Below, piece by piece: positions 49,885 through 62,501 of a stretch of 64,000 nucleotides of DNA. How positions within the stretch are numbered: the stretch's first letter is position 1; each line of letters starts with the position of its first letter. The notes below the pieces were generated by a model. It saw nothing but the letters and a program-made list of their open reading frames with translations. It was not told the origin of the DNA and searched no databases. The translations under genes were made by a program, and so were the position numbers. Origin of the DNA: Escherichia phage EI-SP-GF; the sequence record OR992645.1, one strand, 5' to 3'.

Positions 49885-50553
49885 ATGGCTGTAGCTTATC
49901 CTACAATACCAATCCCAGATCTTGAAGATGCAGAAACAGTCTTGAGTGATGACTTCTTGGTTGTCAACCAGACTGACGGGACAAGAAAGGCTAAGATTGA
50001 TGATGTTGTCAATGATCTTAGCATTACTAAAATAGTTTATTTCACAGAGGGCGGTTATCTTAAGAGCAAGAAGGATTTTGCTTATGATCCGGAAACTAAG
50101 CGCTACTACACATGGAATGGAGATTATCCTAAAATAATCCTCCCAGATTCTACTGTAGAGGGTGCCGGAGGTGTGTCTGCAAAAGCATGGTCTGTTTTTG
50201 GAGAGCTTGCTGCAACTTCTTCAGGTAGGATAGTTGATTACGGCTCTATTGGTGGTCAACTTGACATGGATCTTGACGTTGCAGACACGTTTAAAGTTCG
50301 GCTCACTTCAAACACTACAATCTCTTTTGAAAATCAAACAGAAGGGCTCGACGGAGTGGCAAGAACTATAACTGTATGCATAACGCAGACCTCGGGTGGT
50401 AACAAAGTTTATTGGCCTGACAATGTTAAATGGGCCTACGGGAGAGATCCTATCCTAACATTTACAGCTGGTGCAACAGACATTTTCAAGTTGGAAACAT
50501 ATGATAATGGACTAACTTGGTACGGGGCACTGATCATCGCAGGAGCTATCTAA
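49885..50553 (+). CDS. tail fibre-related protein sharing N-terminal domain with 53188 fibre
   Basis: N-terminus ETVLSDDFLVVNQTDGTRKAKIDDVV parallels DDYLVVQQPDLTRRVKIGDVV of the 1268-aa fibre. Confidence 0.4.
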   Translation: MAVAYPTIPIPDLEDAETVLSDDFLVVNQTDGTRKAKIDDVVNDLSITKIVYFTEGGYLKSKKDFAYDPETKRYYTWNGDYPKIILPDSTVEGAGGVSAKAWSVFGELAATSSGRIVDYGSIGGQLDMDLDVADTFKVRLTSNTTISFENQTEGLDGVARTITVCITQTSGGNKVYWPDNVKWAYGRDPILTFTAGATDIFKLETYDNGLTWYGALIIAGAI

Positions 50554-50554
50554 G

Positions 50555-53152
50555 ATGCGTATTCAACACAACATTGATAACGTATTTCAGATGATCGAGG
50601 GGCACAGGAAGTGCCTCGATAACAACACAGGTATTACCAATCTCCCTACACAGAACAAACTGGTAAACCAGGATGGACTTATAGCGTCAGGTTGGTCAGG
50701 AAGTAAGATAAATAATGATTGGGCAATGCATGAGTCCCAAGCCGTGTTGATTCTGGGATACATTGAGGCATACAGGGCATCAAAAAGCGATTTTTATCTA
50801 GACAGGGCCAAAGAGGCTTGGGAAGCCTACAACAGTCATCTTCTGGGAGTATATGCAGTAGAAAGTAAAATGCAAAGATTGTCCCACTACCCGTTATCCA
50901 CAGATGGAGTTCCATCACATGGTGGGTTTAAAGATGTGGTTGTGTCTTTTAACAAAGGTAGAGGAAAAATCCCAGCAGGATCCCCGACATGGGGAGAATA
51001 CTTGGACAAGGCTTTTCAGGCGTATAACGGTGTTTTAGGAAGAAACACTGTAGACTCTGATGTTTACGGCGGCACAGATGCTAATCCTAATTGGACAACT
51101 TCCGGATTAAGTTGGTGGGTTGAGTGGTATATAGCATGGGATGGTAACCGCTATTGGGCCAACGGTAGCATAGCCGACAGTGGTCATACGTCTGCAGAGT
51201 TCGGCACAATCCAACTGCAAGATAAGGGTGTTACAGGCAACCACAAGGTTACCTATTGTGTGAGATTGCCTAAAGAGCAGGGAGGATCGGTGATACCTGC
51301 TGGATCCCCTGTAATTGTAAATCCTATAAACGTGGTTGCAGACAATCAAGCCCCAGAGTTAGACGGGGAAGAGATGTGGTGTGACGCTTGTTATCAACTC
51401 TACACCTTGACAGGTGAGGAAAAGTATTACACCGCGTTTAAGCAGTCTTACAATAAGTTGCTTAATTTTAGTGATATAAATGCCTACGACAAGCTGTTCA
51501 GAAAGACCACGTTGATTAAGGCCCCGTTCACAGATGGCACTTGTCTAGTTGCAGGAACAGTACCTGTCATGAGTAGGGATAGTGACGGATATATCAATTT
51601 TAGAATGAACGCACGCCAGCCTTGCGAAATAATCCAAAAAGGGACTACATACAAAATAGGCAGAGATGCTGAAATTGTTATGAATTTCGGAGGAGAAGGG
51701 GTTCTGTTCCAGCCACATTTCATCCTTAATGATGGCAACAATAACAAAAAACAGTACAGAATAGGTGTACCTTTTGGAGGGGCAGAGGTAACAGAAACAG
51801 TTGCCAAGGTTACTGATTTTGTAGAGGTGGTTGGTAAAGACGGTAACCCGTATCTCTTGCCAAAAGAGGAAAACATTGCCGTAAGCGGTGGCGCTAGTGT
51901 TAGTATGCAGTATGATACCGACATTTACAACCACTCTGACAACTTCACCCGTTGCAACATAGTAAGAGGCAAGGTAACTTTCAATTTTGGAAGAGAGATT
52001 TCTTTAAACTCAGTGACTTATCGGTCAGATGATGAGATGGTAAGGGTCAAATTTCTTGACAAAGACCGTTGGTTATGGTATGCTGATCTATATGCTACTA
52101 ACGGGCAATGGATAACAGAAACTCTTACCCTGGGCGATTTTAAACTAGACCCAACACAACCTCATCACACAGAAGATGAGATTAAACCTTTCTTTGCTAA
52201 CCCTAAAGGAATTACCTCTGTAGATTTCAGTCTGAGCGACAGGCAGATAGGCAATGGCTTGTTCGATCTGTATTGCGTCAACACGCTGCCGCAATTTTAT
52301 GTTGCAGATAGGGATGCTTATCTGATCTGGTTTAGTGTATGGATGGCAAGCAAGACAGAATCAACCGCCAAGGTTGGTGATTGCTATGTCAGAAACTACA
52401 AGCAAGGAGCATACAGACACACTCCTGGTGTGTTCCCTGCTGGGAAGGTGATAGATAAGGAAAACTATCTCTTAGAGGAAAAGCCAAATTGGCCCTATCC
52501 TGGCATGCAATACCCAGCAGTCTACTGCATGGGTGCAGAAAACATAGATCGCCATAGATTGTCAAATACAATAGGCTTTCTGTACGACTCTCAAGTCTGG
52601 TATAATAATACATTTAAGACAGAGGGTCCAGTTGCCTCACGTTATGTATGGCAAAGAGGTAATGAAGGGTTGACTGGTTGGTGGGAGATGGTAGATAACT
52701 CTAAGCTCCAGTCAAGATCTTTTGTTGCTGCGTGCCGCACAATATATGAGCTCAAGAAACATAAAGAACCTGTTGATGAAAGACTGTTCCTGTTCTGCCA
52801 GAAATGGGCATGGTTCCTCAACAGATTCCAGTCATCTCATTCAGGAAATCTACCTACAGACTTTAACACCTCTGGAGGATACTCTTATCAGGACAGAGGA
52901 GACAGGATGTGGGTGGTAGGTGAATGGCTTGCAGGTTGCTGCTGGCTAGGTCTTTGCGGGTATTCAGAGACAATACCTCAAATAGATATTGTTGTAGAGG
53001 CCTGTATGAAGTTACTGCAAAAGCACCACTTCATTAACGGGGATAATGTTTTAAACGGCTGCTGGGCAGTTTCTGATCCGGTAGGCTATCACTCTGGCGA
53101 AATCCTTCGCGGTCTGGGACTTTATGCTCAATACCGTGGATTGTACCTTTAA
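50555..53152 (+). CDS. large tail fibre/tailspike-like protein (865 aa)
   Basis: Large ORF within tail fibre cluster; no catalytic motif recognised. Confidence 0.4.
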   Translation: MRIQHNIDNVFQMIEGHRKCLDNNTGITNLPTQNKLVNQDGLIASGWSGSKINNDWAMHESQAVLILGYIEAYRASKSDFYLDRAKEAWEAYNSHLLGVYAVESKMQRLSHYPLSTDGVPSHGGFKDVVVSFNKGRGKIPAGSPTWGEYLDKAFQAYNGVLGRNTVDSDVYGGTDANPNWTTSGLSWWVEWYIAWDGNRYWANGSIADSGHTSAEFGTIQLQDKGVTGNHKVTYCVRLPKEQGGSVIPAGSPVIVNPINVVADNQAPELDGEEMWCDACYQLYTLTGEEKYYTAFKQSYNKLLNFSDINAYDKLFRKTTLIKAPFTDGTCLVAGTVPVMSRDSDGYINFRMNARQPCEIIQKGTTYKIGRDAEIVMNFGGEGVLFQPHFILNDGNNNKKQYRIGVPFGGAEVTETVAKVTDFVEVVGKDGNPYLLPKEENIAVSGGASVSMQYDTDIYNHSDNFTRCNIVRGKVTFNFGREISLNSVTYRSDDEMVRVKFLDKDRWLWYADLYATNGQWITETLTLGDFKLDPTQPHHTEDEIKPFFANPKGITSVDFSLSDRQIGNGLFDLYCVNTLPQFYVADRDAYLIWFSVWMASKTESTAKVGDCYVRNYKQGAYRHTPGVFPAGKVIDKENYLLEEKPNWPYPGMQYPAVYCMGAENIDRHRLSNTIGFLYDSQVWYNNTFKTEGPVASRYVWQRGNEGLTGWWEMVDNSKLQSRSFVAACRTIYELKKHKEPVDERLFLFCQKWAWFLNRFQSSHSGNLPTDFNTSGGYSYQDRGDRMWVVGEWLAGCCWLGLCGYSETIPQIDIVVEACMKLLQKHHFINGDNVLNGCWAVSDPVGYHSGEILRGLGLYAQYRGLYL

Positions 53153-53187: not shown

Positions 53188-56100
53188 ATGGCTGATATTA
53201 AAGTTGTCAGAATTGAATCTCTTCCTGCCACTACCGCAGTGACAGAGGATGATTACCTGGTTGTTCAACAACCAGACCTGACCCGTCGTGTAAAAATTGG
53301 CGATGTTGTCCATGTGGATGGGACTGTTTCTCATGTAATCTCCTTTAAGGAAGGTGGTAAGTTAAACGGCCCAATGGATTTTGCCTACTTCGAAGAGGAA
53401 GATCTATACCTGCGTTGGAAAGGCGAATTTCCACACACTGTCCCTGCACTGTCTTCACCATATTCTGACGGTGGTATTACTGACGCTGCGTGGATGGTAT
53501 ATACAGATCCGTCCTTAAGGGAGGAGCTGGAGTCTACCATTGGCGCATCTATGATCATGACAGCCGAAGGGCAGTCTGTCCAAGATGTAATGGATGTTAC
53601 TGTTCAGACAGCCAACGATGCTAAAGCACTTGCACAGCGGGTAGATTTTGGCACAGTGCATACTGTAGGCGATGTTATTCACCTTGTCAACTTTGTTGGT
53701 CCTGCAGTTATTGAAGAGGGAAGAACTACTAACTACCCTTCTGAAGCGGCGGGTGAAAAATTTCTGAACGGTGTGGTATCTCGTCGTGATACTACAACTG
53801 TTGATGGCATTTTCCGTGGCGCTACCTCCGGAGCCATGTATACCATTGCAGTAACCAACGGTGTAGCAACAACAAAAAGAATAGCACTTCGTGACGAATT
53901 TAAACGCCTGGAGGCAAACAACCCAACAAGAACAGTTATCCGTGCCGGAGATGATTTAAACACAGCAGGGTACTTGCAGCTTGATGCAACAGGCCGTTGG
54001 GGTATGTGGAACCAACAAACAGCTTCGTGGCAACCTCTTGCTATAGAGCAAGGCGGCACAGGGGCCAGAGATGCCGCAGGTGCACGCATTAATTTAGGGG
54101 CTTTCTATAAGCAACGTGCAGCCCTTGAGTCAAATTTTAATATCAATAACTTGACTGGTAATCAGGATGGTATATACTACCAGCCGATGACTGCTTATGC
54201 AACTGAGGCAAATGGTTACCCTGCAGGTTCTGGTGCTGGTCACTTGATTGTCTGGCAGAACAATGCTAACGGCGGTACAGGTTGTCGTCAGGAATACTAT
54301 CCATTCTCTAACGTAGATGTTTGGTATTTGAGAACCTATCAGGCCAACACAAATCAGTGGACTGCATGGCAGCCAATGGTCAGACCCCGTAACGATGAGA
54401 CCTTTAGATCGCACATCGGTCTTGGGTCTAGGAATTCTCCTACCTTCGGGCACCTTTACCTGTCTCAAAGCTCGGCTGATGTTAAGTCGGCATCAGGTAT
54501 TGTTAACGGGGACAAATACAGCGCTGACGGTGTCCTTGAGCATGGGTATAGGATCTACTCTGAGGTAAGAAACGACAATAAGGCTTGGTTGACAATCCAC
54601 CTGCACAAAGGCGCAAAAGGATCTGAAACTCATAGATATTTAGGCTTCCGCGAGGATGGGGTCTTAGATTGTCCTAAATATATGCAGGTTGGTGATCTGA
54701 ACGGTCAGCTGGCAAACTGGGGACTTGGAGAATGGATCCGCAGTTCAGGAGCAGAAAGAGGTTTCTGGGGATCTAAGAAAGCCGCCAAGATGGTTATCTG
54801 GGATGGCGGTATGGACGAGCAAGGTGAAGGAACGCTTGAGTGGGGTGTTTATAACAACCGGAAAGCCAAATGGGAACCACTACCGATAGCTTGTGGTGGT
54901 ACCAGTGCCAGGACTGTAGGGGATGCTCAAGCACAATTCAGAATCCCTCTGGCATCAGGCGCTAGACCATATGTAAACCTGCCTAGAACTGCAGCTATGC
55001 AGGACGGTAAGTATTATCCTATTATCGTCAGAACTGACCCCAACTTTGCAGCAACTATCGGGACAGATTTAACCATTGTCACCAGATCTTCTTCTGGCGG
55101 CGACCCAATGAACTGTGCTACACTACAGTGTCACTACAGAACTGGTGGCTGGACAGACAGAGGTGATTCTTTCCAAGGGGTTATTAATTTCTACCAAAAC
55201 GAGAGAGCAATCCTCGGATGTGTATCTCCAACCAGAGGTAAGCAGGAGTATGTTGCATTCTATGTAGAGGCACGTGCATTCCCTGTTACAGTATATGCTG
55301 GCGCTACTGTAATAGAAGTGTCAACCAGGGAGGCTGATTGGCAAGTAGGCAACGTGACAGGTAACCAAGATGGTGTCAAGTTCTGTGCTCCTCTGGAATC
55401 TGCAGATTTGAGTCTTGCAATCAAAGGTGATGATGTAACAAACACCAGACCTCTGGTTGAGTTCAAAGGAACATCAGGTTTCTACACTGGTGGTGGAACT
55501 ATGTGGCACTACCTGGGGACTCCTGAACGCTATGCAGTGATGAGCAAAACGAACATGCCTAAAGTCGAGCTGTGGGCAGACGGTCTTGACTATTTGTGCT
55601 ACGGCGGTCCTAGAAAGGCATTATTCTCTAACGCGGGATTCCAGTGTGCATCTGACGGAACAGAGGATCTAACTAACGGCACGTTTACCTCTAAATGTGG
55701 TAATGGTGCTGGCCTTAAAGGCCAAGCAGAGTTCAGGTCTACTCCAGAAGCTGGTCAAGTTATTGTTCGAGATGTTGTGGGAACAGCTCATAGATTCTAC
55801 AACTTCAACAAAGATGGTACTTTCTCAGCCCCAGGTGGTTTTGTATGTCATACTGGTGGAGACTGGAACAACCAGTTCGGGCCTAATAACCCGTCAAAAA
55901 TAATGGCTGGCAACGTCAACGGACCAGAAGGTTCGATGGTTGTTGGTGGGTTGTCTGTGGCGTTTTCTGGAAACTATGCCTTCCAAATGGCTGGTCGCCT
56001 TGATCAGTTATACACCAGATCTATTGAGGGTGGTAACCACAGGGCGTGGAACAAAGTTATTCAGCACCGTGGTCAAGGTCTGGGGACAGAAGACCTTAAT

Positions 56101-56994
56101 GCCTACGATGGTAGCCGTGAAGGTTTCTATCACCAAGGTTCAAACGCTGACGCACTTGTAATAGATCGCCACTACCCTGCTCCGTACGCTGGTACACTGC
56201 TTGTTTACAAAAACACAGCTAACAGACCTCAAGGTTGTGTGCAGGAATATATCACCTATTTTGGTGACAGATATACTCGTGCTGGTAACTACGTTGGCGA
56301 TGTCTTTACTTGGGAAGAATGGAGACACGATGCTGGTAAAGGCATTCAGTTAAGACCTAATTACACTTTTGGTGAAACCAGTAATCAACTGGAAATTCAT
56401 GTCGGTGCTAATAGTCTTTCTAGCAACGCCGATAACTTACCTACCAATACAGGTAGAATGTTCTATTGGGGTAACGCAGACAGGAAGAACGTGCTTGAGT
56501 TTCAGGTAAACGACAACGCTGCATCTGCTAGCTGGGTATTCCACTGTGGCACTAGGTCAGACGAGGCTAAGTCAAGATATTTTGCTGTCAACGGTGTAGT
56601 AGAGTGCACCACTGTGAGCCAGAGCTCTGATAGAGACCTGAAGGACAATATAGAGGTTATTCCTAACGCGCTGGAAGCTATCCGTAAGATGAAGGGCTAT
56701 ACCTACACTTTAAAAGAGAATGGTATGCCTCACGCGGGGGTAATTGCTCAAGAGGTCATGGAAGCATTGCCAGAGGCAGTAGGGTCTTTCGTGAAAAGGA
56801 AGGAAATCCCAAACCCTGATCAAGATGGAACTCCTTTGATAACAGAAGAAAGGTTCTATAACGTTGACTACGCAGCTGTAACAGGCTTGCTTGTCCAGGT
56901 TTGCAGGGAACAGGACGATAAAATAACCGCCCTTGAGGAGCAGGTTAAAAAATTGACAGAGGTTGTTACTGGGTTGCAAGAGAAACTGAAGTAA
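53188..56994 (+). CDS. tail fibre with C-terminal intramolecular chaperone (S74-like) domain
   Basis: C-terminal SDRDLKDNIEVIPNALEAIRKMKGYTYTLKE...GVIAQEV matches the autoproteolytic fibre chaperone signature; Gly-rich repetitive shaft. Confidence 0.75.
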   Translation: MADIKVVRIESLPATTAVTEDDYLVVQQPDLTRRVKIGDVVHVDGTVSHVISFKEGGKLNGPMDFAYFEEEDLYLRWKGEFPHTVPALSSPYSDGGITDAAWMVYTDPSLREELESTIGASMIMTAEGQSVQDVMDVTVQTANDAKALAQRVDFGTVHTVGDVIHLVNFVGPAVIEEGRTTNYPSEAAGEKFLNGVVSRRDTTTVDGIFRGATSGAMYTIAVTNGVATTKRIALRDEFKRLEANNPTRTVIRAGDDLNTAGYLQLDATGRWGMWNQQTASWQPLAIEQGGTGARDAAGARINLGAFYKQRAALESNFNINNLTGNQDGIYYQPMTAYATEANGYPAGSGAGHLIVWQNNANGGTGCRQEYYPFSNVDVWYLRTYQANTNQWTAWQPMVRPRNDETFRSHIGLGSRNSPTFGHLYLSQSSADVKSASGIVNGDKYSADGVLEHGYRIYSEVRNDNKAWLTIHLHKGAKGSETHRYLGFREDGVLDCPKYMQVGDLNGQLANWGLGEWIRSSGAERGFWGSKKAAKMVIWDGGMDEQGEGTLEWGVYNNRKAKWEPLPIACGGTSARTVGDAQAQFRIPLASGARPYVNLPRTAAMQDGKYYPIIVRTDPNFAATIGTDLTIVTRSSSGGDPMNCATLQCHYRTGGWTDRGDSFQGVINFYQNERAILGCVSPTRGKQEYVAFYVEARAFPVTVYAGATVIEVSTREADWQVGNVTGNQDGVKFCAPLESADLSLAIKGDDVTNTRPLVEFKGTSGFYTGGGTMWHYLGTPERYAVMSKTNMPKVELWADGLDYLCYGGPRKALFSNAGFQCASDGTEDLTNGTFTSKCGNGAGLKGQAEFRSTPEAGQVIVRDVVGTAHRFYNFNKDGTFSAPGGFVCHTGGDWNNQFGPNNPSKIMAGNVNGPEGSMVVGGLSVAFSGNYAFQMAGRLDQLYTRSIEGGNHRAWNKVIQHRGQGLGTEDLNAYDGSREGFYHQGSNADALVIDRHYPAPYAGTLLVYKNTANRPQGCVQEYITYFGDRYTRAGNYVGDVFTWEEWRHDAGKGIQLRPNYTFGETSNQLEIHVGANSLSSNADNLPTNTGRMFYWGNADRKNVLEFQVNDNAASASWVFHCGTRSDEAKSRYFAVNGVVECTTVSQSSDRDLKDNIEVIPNALEAIRKMKGYTYTLKENGMPHAGVIAQEVMEALPEAVGSFVKRKEIPNPDQDGTPLITEERFYNVDYAAVTGLLVQVCREQDDKITALEEQVKKLTEVVTGLQEKLK

Positions 56995-57002
56995 CTGTTT
57001 TG

Positions 57003-57030
57003 CCCTCGCTTCGGCGGGGGCTTTTTGTTT
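57003..57030 (+). terminator. intrinsic terminator
   Basis: Stem CCCTCGC/GCGGGGG with UUCG tetraloop, then CTTTTTGTTT. Confidence 0.7.
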
Positions 57031-57033
57031 GTA

Positions 57034-57062
57034 TTGCGTATTAACTCAAAATCTGGTAAAAT
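57034..57062 (+). promoter_or_regulatory. sigma70-like promoter (TTGCGT-N17-TAAAAT)
   Basis: Hexamers at 57034-57039 and 57057-57062; TGGTAAAAT extended -10. Confidence 0.5.
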
Positions 57063-57093
57063 AACTATCATGATTGTTTAACCTGGAGGCACA

Positions 57094-57684
57094 ATGTTTT
57101 TATGGGAAAGGCCTAGATACCTTCCAGATATTAGATTGGAGCTGCTGGCAGATATTGTTACGTTTAAAAGTCCGTTTACAGGTAAAACGCAAAAAGTGAC
57201 CTATGCCACACCTAACTGGAAAGGCACTTTGACGGTTTCCAATATCAGCGAGTCACAGTTGCTAGAGCTTAAGAGCTTTGTTGATCAGGTGTATAAAGAC
57301 GGGAACATTTTTCTTATTAAAACGTACGGTCACTCAGTAACAGCTAATGAGCCAATCGCCCTTGGGCCTACCGGTAACGACGATTTTTTGAAGACGGTCG
57401 GATGGGAGCCAAACAGAGACATAGCCAGAGCTGGGGATAAAATATCTGTTAACGATGAATTGAAAGTGGTAACAGCTCCAGTGCGCAGCGATGGTGTTGG
57501 GTCTGCTGTTATAAGCATATCTCCAAGACTTAGAAAACCTATTGCCGCAGGGGACACTATGAAGATAATAACTCAATCCCCAAAGGGTAGGTTTCATATC
57601 AGAGATATTTATAAAATTAAGCAAAAAGTCGATGCTATGCAAAAAGGTGATAATATAGTTATCAACTTCTTTGAGGATTTCTAA
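57094..57684 (+). CDS. hypothetical tail tip protein (196 aa)
   Basis: First gene of cluster ending with J-like protein; GGAGG RBS. Confidence 0.35.
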   Translation: MFLWERPRYLPDIRLELLADIVTFKSPFTGKTQKVTYATPNWKGTLTVSNISESQLLELKSFVDQVYKDGNIFLIKTYGHSVTANEPIALGPTGNDDFLKTVGWEPNRDIARAGDKISVNDELKVVTAPVRSDGVGSAVISISPRLRKPIAAGDTMKIITQSPKGRFHIRDIYKIKQKVDAMQKGDNIVINFFEDF

Positions 57685-57685
57685 G

Positions 57686-58237
57686 ATGATTAGAGCGCCA
57701 TTAGATAATTTATTTCTTGAAAAGCTGGAGCTTGATAGTGTTGAGATCTTAATTGCTGCAAAGCTAGAGCTACCAACAGGGACTGTCAGGGTGTGCTCAG
57801 GAACTGGTGTTGTGGTGATTGAGGGGCAACATTTTATAGGGATAGGTGGATCAGCAACATTGACTGCTGTGTCTGAGAAAGATGCTACCAACTTCGGATC
57901 TGTGGTAGCAACATTGAACGGATTTGATCCCAAGTATGTAGGTGATCTGCTGAAGACAGAGTATTCGGGTTGTCGTGCCACGTTGTATATCACAGCTATG
58001 GAGAATGGTTTACCTGTTACAACCAATGGCTTGTTTGACGGCCTTATAACAGACATGGCTATTCAGACAGGGGAGAATAGTGCTTTGTCCATATCCATAT
58101 CTTCCATCTTCAACAGCTGGTTAAGAGGTTTTCCTTATCGATACACAGAGGAGAGCCATAGCTCAAGAAACGATAATGACAGATTTTTTAAATATGTGGA
58201 TCAGGTGGCAAGCCGCCCGATCATTTGGGAGGTTTAA
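57686..58237 (+). CDS. hypothetical tail tip protein (183 aa)
   Basis: Start moved to ATG 57686 just after upstream stop. Confidence 0.35.
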   Translation: MIRAPLDNLFLEKLELDSVEILIAAKLELPTGTVRVCSGTGVVVIEGQHFIGIGGSATLTAVSEKDATNFGSVVATLNGFDPKYVGDLLKTEYSGCRATLYITAMENGLPVTTNGLFDGLITDMAIQTGENSALSISISSIFNSWLRGFPYRYTEESHSSRNDNDRFFKYVDQVASRPIIWEV

Positions 58238-58662
58238 TGAGCACACACCCTCGTTTAGTAGACTGGCAAGAAAGATTGTGGAAAGTGTTTGACGAAGAAG
58301 CTACCGTCCAGTTTGAATGGGGATTCCACGATTGTTGCACTTTTGCGGCTAAATGTGTTGATGCCCAATATGGAACAGATTTTCTTTCTAACTTTGAAGG
58401 AACGTATAAAACAGAGTTGGAAAGCAAGAGATGGTGCATGCTCCGTTTCAAAACCACCCACCTGCCTACTATTTTTGATCTCTTTTTGACTCGACTGGAT
58501 ACTCCTAAACAGGTTCAGCGTGGCGATATTGTTATTTTCGAAGGTCTGAACGGGCTCACCGCTGGTGTGTTCTGGAACAACCAGATTTGGGCGAAAGGTG
58601 ATAAGGGGATCTTTATGTTCGACATGAAAGATTCTATCGTTGTTGATGTCTGGAGGTATTAA
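58237..58662 (+). CDS. hypothetical tail tip protein with Cys/His motif (141 aa)
   Basis: Start moved to ATG 58237 (GGGAGG RBS, TAATG overlap); WGFHDCCTFAAKC could be a peptidase-like site. Confidence 0.35.
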   Translation: MSTHPRLVDWQERLWKVFDEEATVQFEWGFHDCCTFAAKCVDAQYGTDFLSNFEGTYKTELESKRWCMLRFKTTHLPTIFDLFLTRLDTPKQVQRGDIVIFEGLNGLTAGVFWNNQIWAKGDKGIFMFDMKDSIVVDVWRY

Positions 58663-61600
58663 TGCCAATTGCAATGATTGATAACATCGTTGCTTCTGCA
58701 AGATCTTCGAGCTATGACTGGAACGCATCCAAGGCAGCTCTGGCTGACAGCCTGAACACTGTTACCACCAGAACCCTGGATAAGATTTTCGAAGGTAACA
58801 AATCTTACAGAAGTCAGCAAGATAGACAAAAGCTTCTCAGATCTTCTGCTGCACCTTGCTCTGTAGTGTATGGGAAGACACGCACATCTGGATTGCTTGC
58901 GTTTTTGGAGCAGGACAGGGACAGAACCCTTCATTGTGCTATTGTTCTTGCCAATCATCCCTTGGAAGGTATAGAAGATATACTTATCGACGGTAATCCT
59001 ATTTCCTCGTATGGGGATTTGGTATCGTGGGAGTTACATAACGACAGGAAAACCTCTGATCCTTTCATGGGTACACACTGCCCTTCGTGGTCACCAGACA
59101 TGATAGGTAGAGGGATCAGTTGGCTACGTGCCAGCTTTAAGTTTGACCCTAACAAGTTTCCTTTTGGGTTGCCAAACGTTACACTCGTCAAGGTTGGTAA
59201 AAAATGTTATGATCCTCGTATCAGTAAAGAGGTGTATACCAATAACGCTGCCTTGGTGATTCTGGACTACCTAAGAACGTACCTTAAATGTCCTGACGAA
59301 ACCATCAACTGGGAGTCCTTCAAGGAAGCTGCCAACATATGCGATGAGGCTGTAAAAAACGCGGACGGAACCAGTGAGCGCCGTTACACCATTAATGGCG
59401 AGTTCGACATGGATGAAGCACCAGCAAGCATTATGGCAGAGATGCTGAAAGCTTGTGGTGCAGACCTTAGCTATGTAGCTGGCAAATATGGTCTGCTGGT
59501 AGGTGCATACTATGGCCCGGCAACAATGACACTTAGCGAGAACTGTGTTTGCGGTGAGGTTAAGATCTATCCTGAAGCCTCCTTCGACAAAAGATCCAAC
59601 ACAATAACTGGCAGATTCACTAGTCCGGCCAAAGGGTATTCTGAAACAGATTTTCCATCAGTGTTTGTCCCAGAGTGGGTAGAGAAGGATGGAGAAAGAA
59701 AGATAATCGATATAGATTATCGCTTTGTTACCAGTCCTTATCAAGCTCAGCGTGTTTCTGCAATCTTCTTAAGACGTGCCAGAGCTGGTAGGATTATTGA
59801 AGTAACCTGCAATATGCGGGGTTTTAAATTTAAGCCTGGGCGTTACGTTACGATGGACCTCCCAAGTATTGGTATAGTGGGCCAAGAAATGAGGGTTCTT
59901 GAATGGGAGTTCACCAAAAAGGGCGGTGTCAAGGTAAAACTCCGTCAAGATGCTAAAGAGTGGAATGATGCCACAGGGCAACTTCCGGATTCTGGAGATG
60001 TGGATATTCCGATATCCCCGTCCGGCGTAGCTCAACCGCAAAACTTCAGATACTCTGTTCTTCAAGCTGGGGAAGTAACTCATGGTGTTTTGGCTTGGGA
60101 CAACGTTGGAACTTATGCTCAAAATATTGTGCAGGTAAGAAAGAACGGAGAGATTATTTGGACAGCACAGACAGTTGAGCAGTTTGTCCGCGTAGAAGGA
60201 TTGACCAAAGGGTCATACACAGCAACCGTGGTTGCAACATCTTATAAAGGTGGTGTATCTCCAGAAGCTTACTGCGAGTTTAACATTCAAGCACCTGAAG
60301 CTCCTGTTTCTGTAGAAGTTAAGCAGGGATACTTTGCTATCACCTTGATTCCGCACAGCAGGGACTTAGCAAGTGTAAGCACCCAGTATGATTTTTGGAC
60401 ATCTGGTATGACAAGGTTGCCGGACACAAGTGATGCAACCGTTACTTCAAAAGCCACCCGTATGGGTGTTGGTTCAACTTGGACATCTGAAGGTCTGCAG
60501 AACGATAAGATTTATTATTGGTATATTCGAACCACAAACGCTTTTGGTAGTTCTCAGTTTGTAGAATGCGCTGCACGCTGCTACACCTCTATTGAAGATT
60601 TGATGCCTCAGATAGATGCTGAATTTAAAAAGACAGAAACTTATAAAGAGTTGATGAGCACTTTAGATTCCTCTATCGAGGAGGTTGAAAATCGTGTCAC
60701 AGAGCTTAACAAGTACATGGACGGAAGGGTAGATGAGGCATTCCAACAACTTGGAGATAGGATAGGTGCGGTAGTTGCAGAGACAACTCAGAAGTTTGAG
60801 GATGTCAATGGTAATATCACAGCTCTGGATAGGAAACTTGTTGCTGCACAGAACAAGTTCACCAACGATCTGAACACTGAAAGTGGAAGACTGGCATCCC
60901 TGATCGAGACAACCAATAAAGCAACCACTGATCTTCTGAACAAAAAGACAGAGGCTTTAGACGAGAAATTGGTTGCAGCCAAAGGGGAGTTGGTAGAACA
61001 AATAAGTGGTGTGGAGAGCGGATACCTTGCCGGAGATAAAACTCTAGATGGCAAGATCAATACCCAGAGAACGGAACTTGATGCAAGCATCTTAAGCACC
61101 AACCAGGCGACAGTGGATCTTCTCAACAGGACATCTGAAACTTTGGATCAAAAGATCAGTCAGACAAACGCGACGGTATCTAAGAACTATACCACCCTTG
61201 ATGGTAAGATAACTACCGCAAAAACTGATCTCAATACCTTGATTGCCAATACCAACAAGGCCACCACAGATTTGTTGAATCAGAAAACCTCTGCACTGTC
61301 GGAGCAGATAACTTCTGCACGTGGAGAAATTTCTACCAACAAACAGGCGATTAAGGATTTGGATGGTAAGCTGACCTCCACAAAAACAGCACTGGACGCT
61401 ACAATCTCCGATACCAACAAAGCAACCGTGGATCTTATTAACGGCACAGCGTCAGCTATTCGTCAAGAACTTGCTGTTGCTAAGCAGGAGATCATTGATG
61501 ATGTCGGTGATGTGTCAGAGCTTAGAGCTGCAGTAGCTACAACATCTAAGGCTGTGACAGACTTAGAGGGCAAAGTAACTGCTCAATGGGGCACAAAAAT

Positions 61601-62501
61601 ACAGGTAGACTCCGCAGGGAATAAGTATGTGGCAGGTATCCAATTGGGCATGGAAGGCTCTGGAGGCCAAGTTCAATCATACTTCATGGTTAGTGCAAAC
61701 AACTTTGCGGTATACAACCCCGGAAATGGAACAGCAACCCTTGCTTTCGCAATCAAGAACAACCAAGCATTCTTGAAAGATGCTTTTATAGAGAACGGGA
61801 CGATCTCTTCTGCCAAGATTGCACAAGAAATTTCGTCTAACAACTACGATGGCAACGGGTACCATAAATACGGTTGGTATATTAACAAGAACGGACACGC
61901 CCAGTTTATGGATGTGTGGGTGAAAGGTAACATCAACGCTAGTGCAGGTAACTTCACAGGGGCAGTTAACGCTACCAGTGGCACTTTCCGTGGGGATGTT
62001 TATGCCAATAATGGTAGCTTTAGAGGCACCATAGATGCAACAGGAGGTACATTCCGTGGACGTGTAGAAGCTTCCGTTATCCGTGCTAACCAGTTCGAAG
62101 GTGCAATCGTTGCACATAGGACCTATGGTGACTGTCCTCCGGTATATAACTCGCAGCAGAGGGTTTGCCGTTGGAGGTGGAGATATGTGGACAACGTTTC
62201 AGGGCAAGGTAAGAACGTAACATTCTTCTTTAAACTAAACGGAACCTTGTCTGGCTCCCAGCTCAACGTTTGGATAGCCGGACATCAAATCCTTGCAGGT
62301 AAGAAGTACGGAAACGACAACAACGGCATGTGTGCGGTAGGGATAACTGGTCTCGGTGAACAAACCATAGACATTATCGTCGAGATATACACACCATGGT
62401 CAACGTCAAGCGTGACAGGAGTTACAATATCTTGTCCAACCGTAATAGTTAGTCGTTCAAACTCTAGCTTCCAGGGACCTTGGAACGAGTCTCATGACTA
62501 A
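58662..62501 (+). CDS. lambda gpJ-like tail tip / host specificity protein
   Basis: Segments APEAPVSVEVKQGYFAITLIPH, YYWYIRTTNAFGSSQFVE and KYVAGIQLGMEG...FMVSANNFAV parallel lambda J; internal 30-aa coiled-coil repeats. Confidence 0.7.
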   Translation: MPIAMIDNIVASARSSSYDWNASKAALADSLNTVTTRTLDKIFEGNKSYRSQQDRQKLLRSSAAPCSVVYGKTRTSGLLAFLEQDRDRTLHCAIVLANHPLEGIEDILIDGNPISSYGDLVSWELHNDRKTSDPFMGTHCPSWSPDMIGRGISWLRASFKFDPNKFPFGLPNVTLVKVGKKCYDPRISKEVYTNNAALVILDYLRTYLKCPDETINWESFKEAANICDEAVKNADGTSERRYTINGEFDMDEAPASIMAEMLKACGADLSYVAGKYGLLVGAYYGPATMTLSENCVCGEVKIYPEASFDKRSNTITGRFTSPAKGYSETDFPSVFVPEWVEKDGERKIIDIDYRFVTSPYQAQRVSAIFLRRARAGRIIEVTCNMRGFKFKPGRYVTMDLPSIGIVGQEMRVLEWEFTKKGGVKVKLRQDAKEWNDATGQLPDSGDVDIPISPSGVAQPQNFRYSVLQAGEVTHGVLAWDNVGTYAQNIVQVRKNGEIIWTAQTVEQFVRVEGLTKGSYTATVVATSYKGGVSPEAYCEFNIQAPEAPVSVEVKQGYFAITLIPHSRDLASVSTQYDFWTSGMTRLPDTSDATVTSKATRMGVGSTWTSEGLQNDKIYYWYIRTTNAFGSSQFVECAARCYTSIEDLMPQIDAEFKKTETYKELMSTLDSSIEEVENRVTELNKYMDGRVDEAFQQLGDRIGAVVAETTQKFEDVNGNITALDRKLVAAQNKFTNDLNTESGRLASLIETTNKATTDLLNKKTEALDEKLVAAKGELVEQISGVESGYLAGDKTLDGKINTQRTELDASILSTNQATVDLLNRTSETLDQKISQTNATVSKNYTTLDGKITTAKTDLNTLIANTNKATTDLLNQKTSALSEQITSARGEISTNKQAIKDLDGKLTSTKTALDATISDTNKATVDLINGTASAIRQELAVAKQEIIDDVGDVSELRAAVATTSKAVTDLEGKVTAQWGTKIQVDSAGNKYVAGIQLGMEGSGGQVQSYFMVSANNFAVYNPGNGTATLAFAIKNNQAFLKDAFIENGTISSAKIAQEISSNNYDGNGYHKYGWYINKNGHAQFMDVWVKGNINASAGNFTGAVNATSGTFRGDVYANNGSFRGTIDATGGTFRGRVEASVIRANQFEGAIVAHRTYGDCPPVYNSQQRVCRWRWRYVDNVSGQGKNVTFFFKLNGTLSGSQLNVWIAGHQILAGKKYGNDNNGMCAVGITGLGEQTIDIIVEIYTPWSTSSVTGVTISCPTVIVSRSNSSFQGPWNESHD

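Follow-up and report, generated by a model that had tools for sequence, protein, structure and literature searches.

Intramolecular chaperone domains of the peptidase S74 family are found on phage fibres and also on tailspikes (endosialidases and the K5 lyase), on neck appendages and on the eukaryotic protein MyRF. The founding member of the MEROPS S74 family is the chaperone domain of endoNF of phage K1F (PDB 3GW6), a tailspike with a sialidase domain. The dyads of these proteins, defined by experiment, have an i+5 spacing, being formed by S911/K916 in endoNF and S587/K592 in MyRF (PMC8326128), and by S1264/K1269 in pb1, the L-shaped tail fibre of T5 (PDB 4UW8; PMC4690869). The chain is cut on the N-terminal side of the serine, that is, at P586|S587 in MyRF (PMC8326128) and at T1263|S1264 in T5 pb1 (PMC4690869), and experiments have proven cleavage in both proteins. 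In endoNF and T5 pb1, an arginine from a neighbouring chain located 14 residues before the serine (R897 and R1250, respectively) works as folding sensor and stabilises the oxyanion. This arginine is dispensable in MyRF and hence is not universal (PMC8326128). MyRF, whose ICA domain is known in structure (PDB 7DC3), is a transcription factor of the eukaryotic ER membrane with no role in the virion, and it does not depend on the upstream stalk for its cleavage.

Among rV5-like phages, Kropinski et al. (2013) reported that the C-terminal domain of rV5 gp41 (1272 aa) matches 3GW6 in an HHpred search and that a coiled coil is predicted (PMC3606486). In the same work, gp41 was found in rV5 virions by mass spectrometry (PMC3606486). 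In the BASEL paper, three lateral tail fibre genes stand out as strongly allelic, and one of them lies at the position of the present gene, 10-14 kb from where the tape-measure gene begins (PMC8594841). The RBPseg paper assigned to Vequintavirinae class TC12 both RBP_11 of MaxBurger, with a C-terminal peptidase S74 domain, and RBP_10 of EmilHeitz, with a lectin-like head, and cryo-EM placed the MaxBurger protein as a fibre at the baseplate wedge (PMC12143355). Similarity to S74 or to 3GW6 was thus reported on orthologues in 2013 and 2025, so that the domain is already known on this fibre type and our finding of it, although correct, is ordinary.

The fibre gene and its rV5-like locus

In this work, we analysed a window of 64,000 nt from Escherichia phage EI-SP-GF (OR992645.1), which belongs to a Vequintavirus, that is, an rV5-like myovirus. 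The features discussed below are collected in the table. The fibre ORF, whose stop codon occupies positions 56992-56994, encodes a protein that matches PHROG phrog_6578 ("tail fiber protein") from aa 1 to aa 1268, and its last ~190 residues also match a dozen further tail-fibre PHROGs. The nearest published allele is the "tail fiber protein" of Escherichia phage vB_EcoM-ECP32 (ECP32), with 97.5% identity in DNA and 98.3% in protein. About 120 Vequintavirus records show 83-94% protein identity to the fibre, with rV5-type orthologues at 83-90% amino acid identity over the full length and MaxBurger bas54_0027 at 84.5%, the latter with its S74 domain at aa 1151-1202. Around 20 GenBank records of the MG0656xx series, named "Campylobacter phage" (host C. 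jejuni, genomes of ~135-140 kb), also contain the fibre at 85-90% identity and full length; their host label looks doubtful and they may represent co-isolated or mislabelled Vequintaviruses.

Features of the fibre gene and its surroundings in the 64,000-nt window
Feature	Position	Strand	Details
Lateral tail fibre gene	53188..56994	+	1268 aa plus stop, from the ORF list
Tail_spike_N (TSP1/gp66-type) attachment domain, aa 46-103	53323..53496	+	Pfam PF18668, E 2.5e-10
Variable distal tip of mature fibre, predicted receptor-binding end, aa 1048-1146	56329..56625	+	
Predicted scissile bond Ser1146|Ser1147	56623..56628	+	Ser1147 is the predicted nucleophile, at S74 profile position 1
Intramolecular chaperone / peptidase S74 domain, aa 1147-1268	56626..56991	+	122 aa, 13.7 kDa
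Lys1152, predicted general base of the Ser-Lys dyad	56641..56643	+	Invariant in the 36-sequence alignment
Predicted beta-hairpin ("tentacle"), aa 1198-1226	56779..56865	+	Model strands at query positions 98-106 and 118-126
C-terminal helix with heptad repeat, predicted trimeric coiled coil, aa 1228-1268	56869..56991	+	Single helix, model positions 128-167, pLDDT 85-95
Terminator-like GC-rich hairpin and T-run	57002..57031	+	8-bp stem with 7 GC pairs, GCCCTCGC-TTCG-GCGGGGGC then TTTTTGTTTG; 8 nt past the fibre stop; match to the consensus only

The order of the locus is syntenic with rV5: the tape measure is followed by hub and wedge genes, a 222-aa Tail_spike_N protein, an 865-aa fibre component, the fibre itself and four tail-tip genes similar to those of lambda and PY54. 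Judged by this synteny, the 1268-aa fibre is the orthologue of rV5 gp41 (ORF 41). It shares with rV5 gp41 and with the TC12 fibres such as MaxBurger bas54_0027 the locus between the 865-aa component and the gpM/L/K/J-like genes, the combination of Tail_spike_N and S74 domains, and an identical SSDRDLKDNI motif. Domain order and locus position also make it a well-founded inference that RBP_11 of the RBPseg paper is an orthologue of this fibre.

A search against PDB sequences matched the Tail_spike_N region with the N-termini of tailspikes and tail fibres, and at E <= 1 Pfam recognised in the whole protein Tail_spike_N and Peptidase_S74, with no other domain. Some long tail fibres of T5-like phages align with aa 168-1263 at 33% identity. 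The initial annotation had taken the S74 domain as the mark of a true fibre. The fibre identity stands, being supported by this T5-like homology, by phrog_6578 and by the cryo-EM fit of the orthologue; the domain as sole marker does not, given that it is also carried by tailspikes, neck appendages and MyRF. The names of some records would even point to an endosialidase or another capsule depolymerase tailspike, since V18 labels the orthologous region endo-N-acetylneuraminidase and Kenya-K20 labels it "chaperone of endosialidase". The "endosialidase" labels on orthologues derive from the name of the S74 family, and we regard a depolymerase as extremely improbable: no sialidase, beta-propeller or lyase domain appears in Pfam at E <= 1, no solved depolymerase or endosialidase chain matches the fibre body when the full protein is compared with PDB, and that body is homologous to the long fibres of T5-like phages. 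In this the protein differs from endoNF, to which its identity is ~12-15%, as it is a fibre with no detected enzyme domain. From T5 pb1, in turn, it differs in its N-terminal anchor and in its virion, which is that of a myovirus equipped with several sets of fibres.

Several genes around the fibre have features of their own. The 222-aa protein (49885-50553, + strand), orthologue of rV5 gp43 and annotated in BASEL phages as a "sialidase domain protein", carries a Tail_spike_N domain (E 3.1e-10) like that of the fibre N-terminus, and it may be a second user of the docking site or an adaptor. The 865-aa protein (50555-53152, + strand), orthologue of rV5 gp42, had no Pfam match at E <= 0.01; the BASEL annotation calls it a lateral tail fibre protein and assigns glycosidase domains to it. 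By position it corresponds to the "sugar deacetylase", a conserved component of the fibres that has been linked in the BASEL paper to recognition of the enterobacterial common antigen.

Directly downstream of the fibre, this myovirus has a siphovirus-like set of tail-tip genes (57094-62501, + strand), which the rV5 annotation likens to those of Yersinia phage PY54. The set comprises an ORF similar to a "distal tail protein" (phrog_1302), a "tail protein" (phrog_2048), a DUF6950 protein (a cell-wall hydrolase in the annotation of BASEL phages) and a 1279-aa protein similar to lambda gpJ, with Ig_J, Ig_J_second and Phage_Tail_Tip domains. Two of the ORFs, at 57671-58237 and 58225-58662 (+ strand), have TTG as their mechanical starts. 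With annotated orthologues of 183 and 141 aa in ECP32 and rV5, ATG codons at 57686 and 58237 are the implied starts, and the one at 58237 overlaps the stop codon of the preceding gene. The strong terminator-like hairpin immediately after the fibre may mark a point where transcription stops or is attenuated before it reaches the tail-tip-like genes; in the 400-nt region examined, terminator-like sites numbered three, against 0.2 expected.

The C-terminal chaperone domain

The initial annotation had recognised an autoproteolytic chaperone domain in the C-terminus of the fibre from three motifs, and had named a search against S74 profiles as the way to check it. All three motifs are in place: SDRDLKDNIEV at aa 1147-1157 (nt 56626-56658), GYTYTLKE at aa 1170-1177 (nt 56695-56718) and GVIAQEV at aa 1184-1190 (nt 56737-56757). 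The search against Pfam-A matched Peptidase_S74 (PF13884, "chaperone of endosialidase") at aa 1147-1198 with an E-value of 1.8e-16 and 60.6 bits, compared with a gathering cutoff of 22, and covered positions 1-57 of the 58 in the profile, a match far beyond chance. The location of the domain at the extreme C-terminus is therefore correct, but not the limits first given to it, a start at 56540 and a length of ~150 residues. The domain occupies the last 122 of the 1268 aa, beginning at Ser1147 (nt 56626) and ending at Lys1268 (nt 56991). Position 56540 is one base out of frame (codons begin at 56539 or 56542), so that a translation started there runs into stops, and it falls within residue 1118, which corresponds to no domain boundary; residues 1118-1146 are part of the mature fibre tip, outside the S74 domain. 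No second S74 domain was found in the 64,000-nt window.

Sequence comparisons with solved structures point in the same direction. The last 151 aa matched S16 gp37 (6F45) with an E-value of 3.5e-5 and the ICA domain of MyRF (7DC3) with 0.12. With a profile built from 36 homologues, these values became 5e-18 and 8e-9, respectively, and the chaperone of the GA-1 neck appendage (3GUD) appeared weakly (E 0.23). A phmmer search of the full fibre against PDB returned matches to its N-terminal anchor domain and 6F45 only, with T5 pb1 and endoNF not found; their structures, 4UW8 and 3GW6, were missed by the profile search too and were recovered solely by fold comparison. T5 pb1 is therefore undetectable by sequence from this fibre. 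S16 gp37 is the closest solved sequence relative of the tip and chaperone together, with which it shares the SSDRxxK motif and a C-terminal coiled coil.

We obtained an AlphaFold2 monomer model of aa 1101-1268 (a query of 168 aa) from a 36-sequence alignment, with a mean pLDDT of 80.2. The model shows, in this order, three beta-strands of the fibre tip (aa 1102-1134), an extended segment bearing the serine, short helices and strands, a beta-hairpin and one long helix. In the chaperones of T5 and endoNF, too, the corresponding part of the domain is a long hairpin, and the modelled order of short helices and strands, hairpin and long terminal helix is the one expected of an S74 chaperone. In the helix, I1246, L1249, V1253, L1256, V1260, L1263 and L1267 follow a 3-4-3-4-3-4 spacing, which would fit a trimeric coiled coil. 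When the model was compared with known folds, the four solved chaperone families were returned, with generic coiled coils next. The TM-scores were modest, as one would anticipate when a domain whose chains intertwine in the trimer is modelled as a monomer. Because the profile match, the conserved dyad, the PDB sequence matches and the fold matches all agree, the reading of the fibre C-terminus as a peptidase-S74 intramolecular chaperone is supported.

The predicted cleavage site

The alignment used here comprised the fibre region and 35 homologues with identities from 85% down to 31%, mostly "tail fiber domain-containing proteins" from E. coli prophages or metagenomic proteins, nearly all of them with PF13884. 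Besides the invariant Lys1152, the alignment showed Ser1147, Asp1148, Leu1151 and Asp1153 conserved in at least 90% of the sequences, Gly1170 and Gly1184 invariant, and the VIAQE stretch after Gly1184 again conserved in at least 90%; the P1 position differs among the homologues. The putative dyad, in S1147-D-R-D-L-K1152, has the i/i+5 spacing and is located at the N-terminal edge of the S74 domain. Since the bonds cut in MyRF and T5 lie N-terminal of the equivalent serine, the cut in this fibre is predicted between Ser1146 and Ser1147, so that the mature fibre would end at Ser1146, directly upstream of the S74 domain. The precursor has a computed mass of 138.9 kDa, which the cut would divide into 125.3 kDa (aa 1-1146) and 13.7 kDa (aa 1147-1268). 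With such a cut, the large chain would end in ...CTTVSQS and the small fragment begin with SDRDLKDN.... The tryptic peptide that crosses the site is YFAVNGVVECTTVSQSSDR, and the predicted semi-tryptic peptide at the C-terminus of the mature fibre is YFAVNGVVECTTVSQS.

We looked in the 36-sequence alignment for an arginine conserved upstream of Ser1147 that could be the sensor, but none turned up. Position -14 is occupied by Ala1133, Arg1130 (-17) varies among close homologues and Arg1123 (-24) is likewise not conserved; no equivalent of Arg1250 of T5 pb1 was thus identified. This result could be taken in favour of an S74-like fold that does not cleave and is retained by the mature fibre as a trimerisation or capping module, all the more so as cleavage of rV5-type fibres is argued from analogy and as C-terminal modules that resemble auto-chaperones and are not cleaved do exist, such as the fin of the P22 tailspike (PMC4690869). 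Nevertheless, MyRF does without the arginine (PMC8326128), and both catalytic residues are kept and conserved in the fibre. Retention would probably be harmful as well, because the uncleaved form of T5 pb1 cannot compete for the receptor (PMC4690869). Moreover, in virions with the MaxBurger orthologue the S74 domain has no cryo-EM density (PMC12143355), a gap that argues for the loss of the domain but that, in a map at 7-9.5 A, could also reflect flexibility. The whole-virion paper on phi92 nowhere mentions chaperones or cleavage. Based on these data, we consider a retained, non-cleaving module very unlikely, and release of the domain by self-cleavage remains the reading that we adopt.

The variable tip and the alleles of the fibre

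Compared with rV5 and MaxBurger in sliding windows, the fibre is ~100% identical over the first ~400 aa (the anchor), 60-98% along the shaft and 90-100% in the chaperone, with a minimum of 32% at aa 1050-1100, on either side of which identity stays at 90-100%. The tip in this phage therefore differs from those of rV5 and MaxBurger and represents a different receptor-binding allele.

What the tip does after cleavage may be asked in view of S16, in which gp37 carries the adhesin gp38, encoded directly downstream. The mature C-terminus of the present fibre, once freed of its S74 domain, could dock a separate gp38-like adhesin, as in gp37-gp38 of S16 and of the T2 type, instead of binding the receptor. 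Such docking was proposed for MaxBurger by the RBPseg authors (PMC12143355), and the best PDB sequence match of tip and chaperone is precisely S16 gp37 (6F45), including the strand before the cut (GGAIYCRDLNVSSDRRIK versus NGVVECTTVSQSSDRDLK). However, a tblastn search with the T6/S16-type gp38 of JS98 found no homologue in the window (best E 0.44) nor in the tail-fibre locus of rV5, nt 12000-50000 (best E 0.95). The next gene downstream (57094..57684, a PHROG "distal tail protein") is present beside both fibre alleles described below and is therefore not allele-specific, and the cryo-EM map contains no adhesin density (PMC12143355). In addition, the part of the fibre that varies is its own tip, which recalls T5 pb1, whose tip makes direct contact with the receptor (PMC4690869). 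Taken together, these observations make adhesin docking unlikely and favour a tip that would itself bind the receptor.

A second allele occupies the same locus in JeffSchatz, CarlMeissner, APECc02 and others, and also in EmilHeitz. Its homology to our fibre ends at aa 1047 and is followed by ~430 aa that have no S74 domain and show a weak concanavalin-like/laminin-G match. In JeffSchatz (MZ501082.1, 3001-7772), the protein has 1479 aa with a lectin-like head, and it is followed by an extra gene of 110 aa (phrog_1361, no Pfam hit), which in the S74-less allele lies between the fibre and the conserved gene that follows. A phrog_1361 gene is absent from our window, where only 99 nt (56995-57093) separate the fibre from the next gene. 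Because the alternative allele is homologous only up to aa 1047 and has no S74 domain, aa ~1048-1268 behave, as far as the sequences indicate, as an exchangeable cassette of tip and chaperone. A similar cassette is found in side tail fibres of lambdoid and T1-like phages (46-67% identity in the T1-like ones) and in T5-like phages.

In the phage collection, ~84 records contain the chaperone at an identity of at least 80%, ~35 contain the small gene at the same level and ~121 contain the fibre, counts from which we estimate that the S74 allele and the small-gene allele are mutually exclusive, as they fit such a division. One apparent exception are OR844877.1 and OR844870.1, fragments of Escherichia phage ECO121 2-1-1, with 100% matches to the chaperone of our phage and to the small gene of the alternative allele, which suggests that the deposit is mixed or fragmentary. 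In lambdoid, T1-like and T5-like phages, more distant homologues of the small gene adjoin side-tail-fibre genes at their 3' ends, and its product may be a trans-acting fibre chaperone. That it stands only beside the S74-less allele is circumstantial support for the chaperone role of S74. We raise, as a tentative idea with somewhat less than even chances, that the Vequintavirus fibre locus alternates between a chaperone in cis (EI-SP-GF, rV5 and MaxBurger) and a lectin-like head accompanied by the 110-aa gene for a trans-acting chaperone (JeffSchatz, EmilHeitz and APECc02), with the conserved chaperone serving as a recombination handle for tip swaps between phage families.

The observed domain identity, dyad conservation, fold, orthology and synteny lead us to conclude that the gene very probably encodes an allelically variable lateral tail fibre of the rV5 type, orthologous to rV5 gp41, with an S74 chaperone, Ser1147-Lys1268, that is released by self-cleavage. 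For the cleavage, the chaperone function and the unmasking of the receptor site, we rely on analogy with T5 pb1, endoNF and MyRF. In the mechanism that we propose, the three C-terminal helices (aa ~1228-1268) would form a coiled coil and nucleate the trimer, and the alpha/beta part, together with the beta-hairpin "tentacle", would hold the three chains aligned with one another during folding of the distal tip. In the native trimer, Lys1152 would then activate Ser1147 to attack the Ser1146-Ser1147 peptide bond. The 13.7 kDa chaperone would then depart, leaving a fibre of 1146 aa (125.3 kDa) whose variable tip (aa ~1048-1146) would now be exposed and could bind the receptor.

The value of these results lies mainly in annotation. 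The misleading "endosialidase" labels on some orthologues call for caution, and whoever engineers or expresses the fibre should retain the chaperone in the construct and expect a product of 125 kDa plus a 13.7 kDa fragment. For the phage itself, the mature fibre is predicted to end at Ser1146, and aa ~1048-1146 are the predicted tip with which it would bind its receptor.
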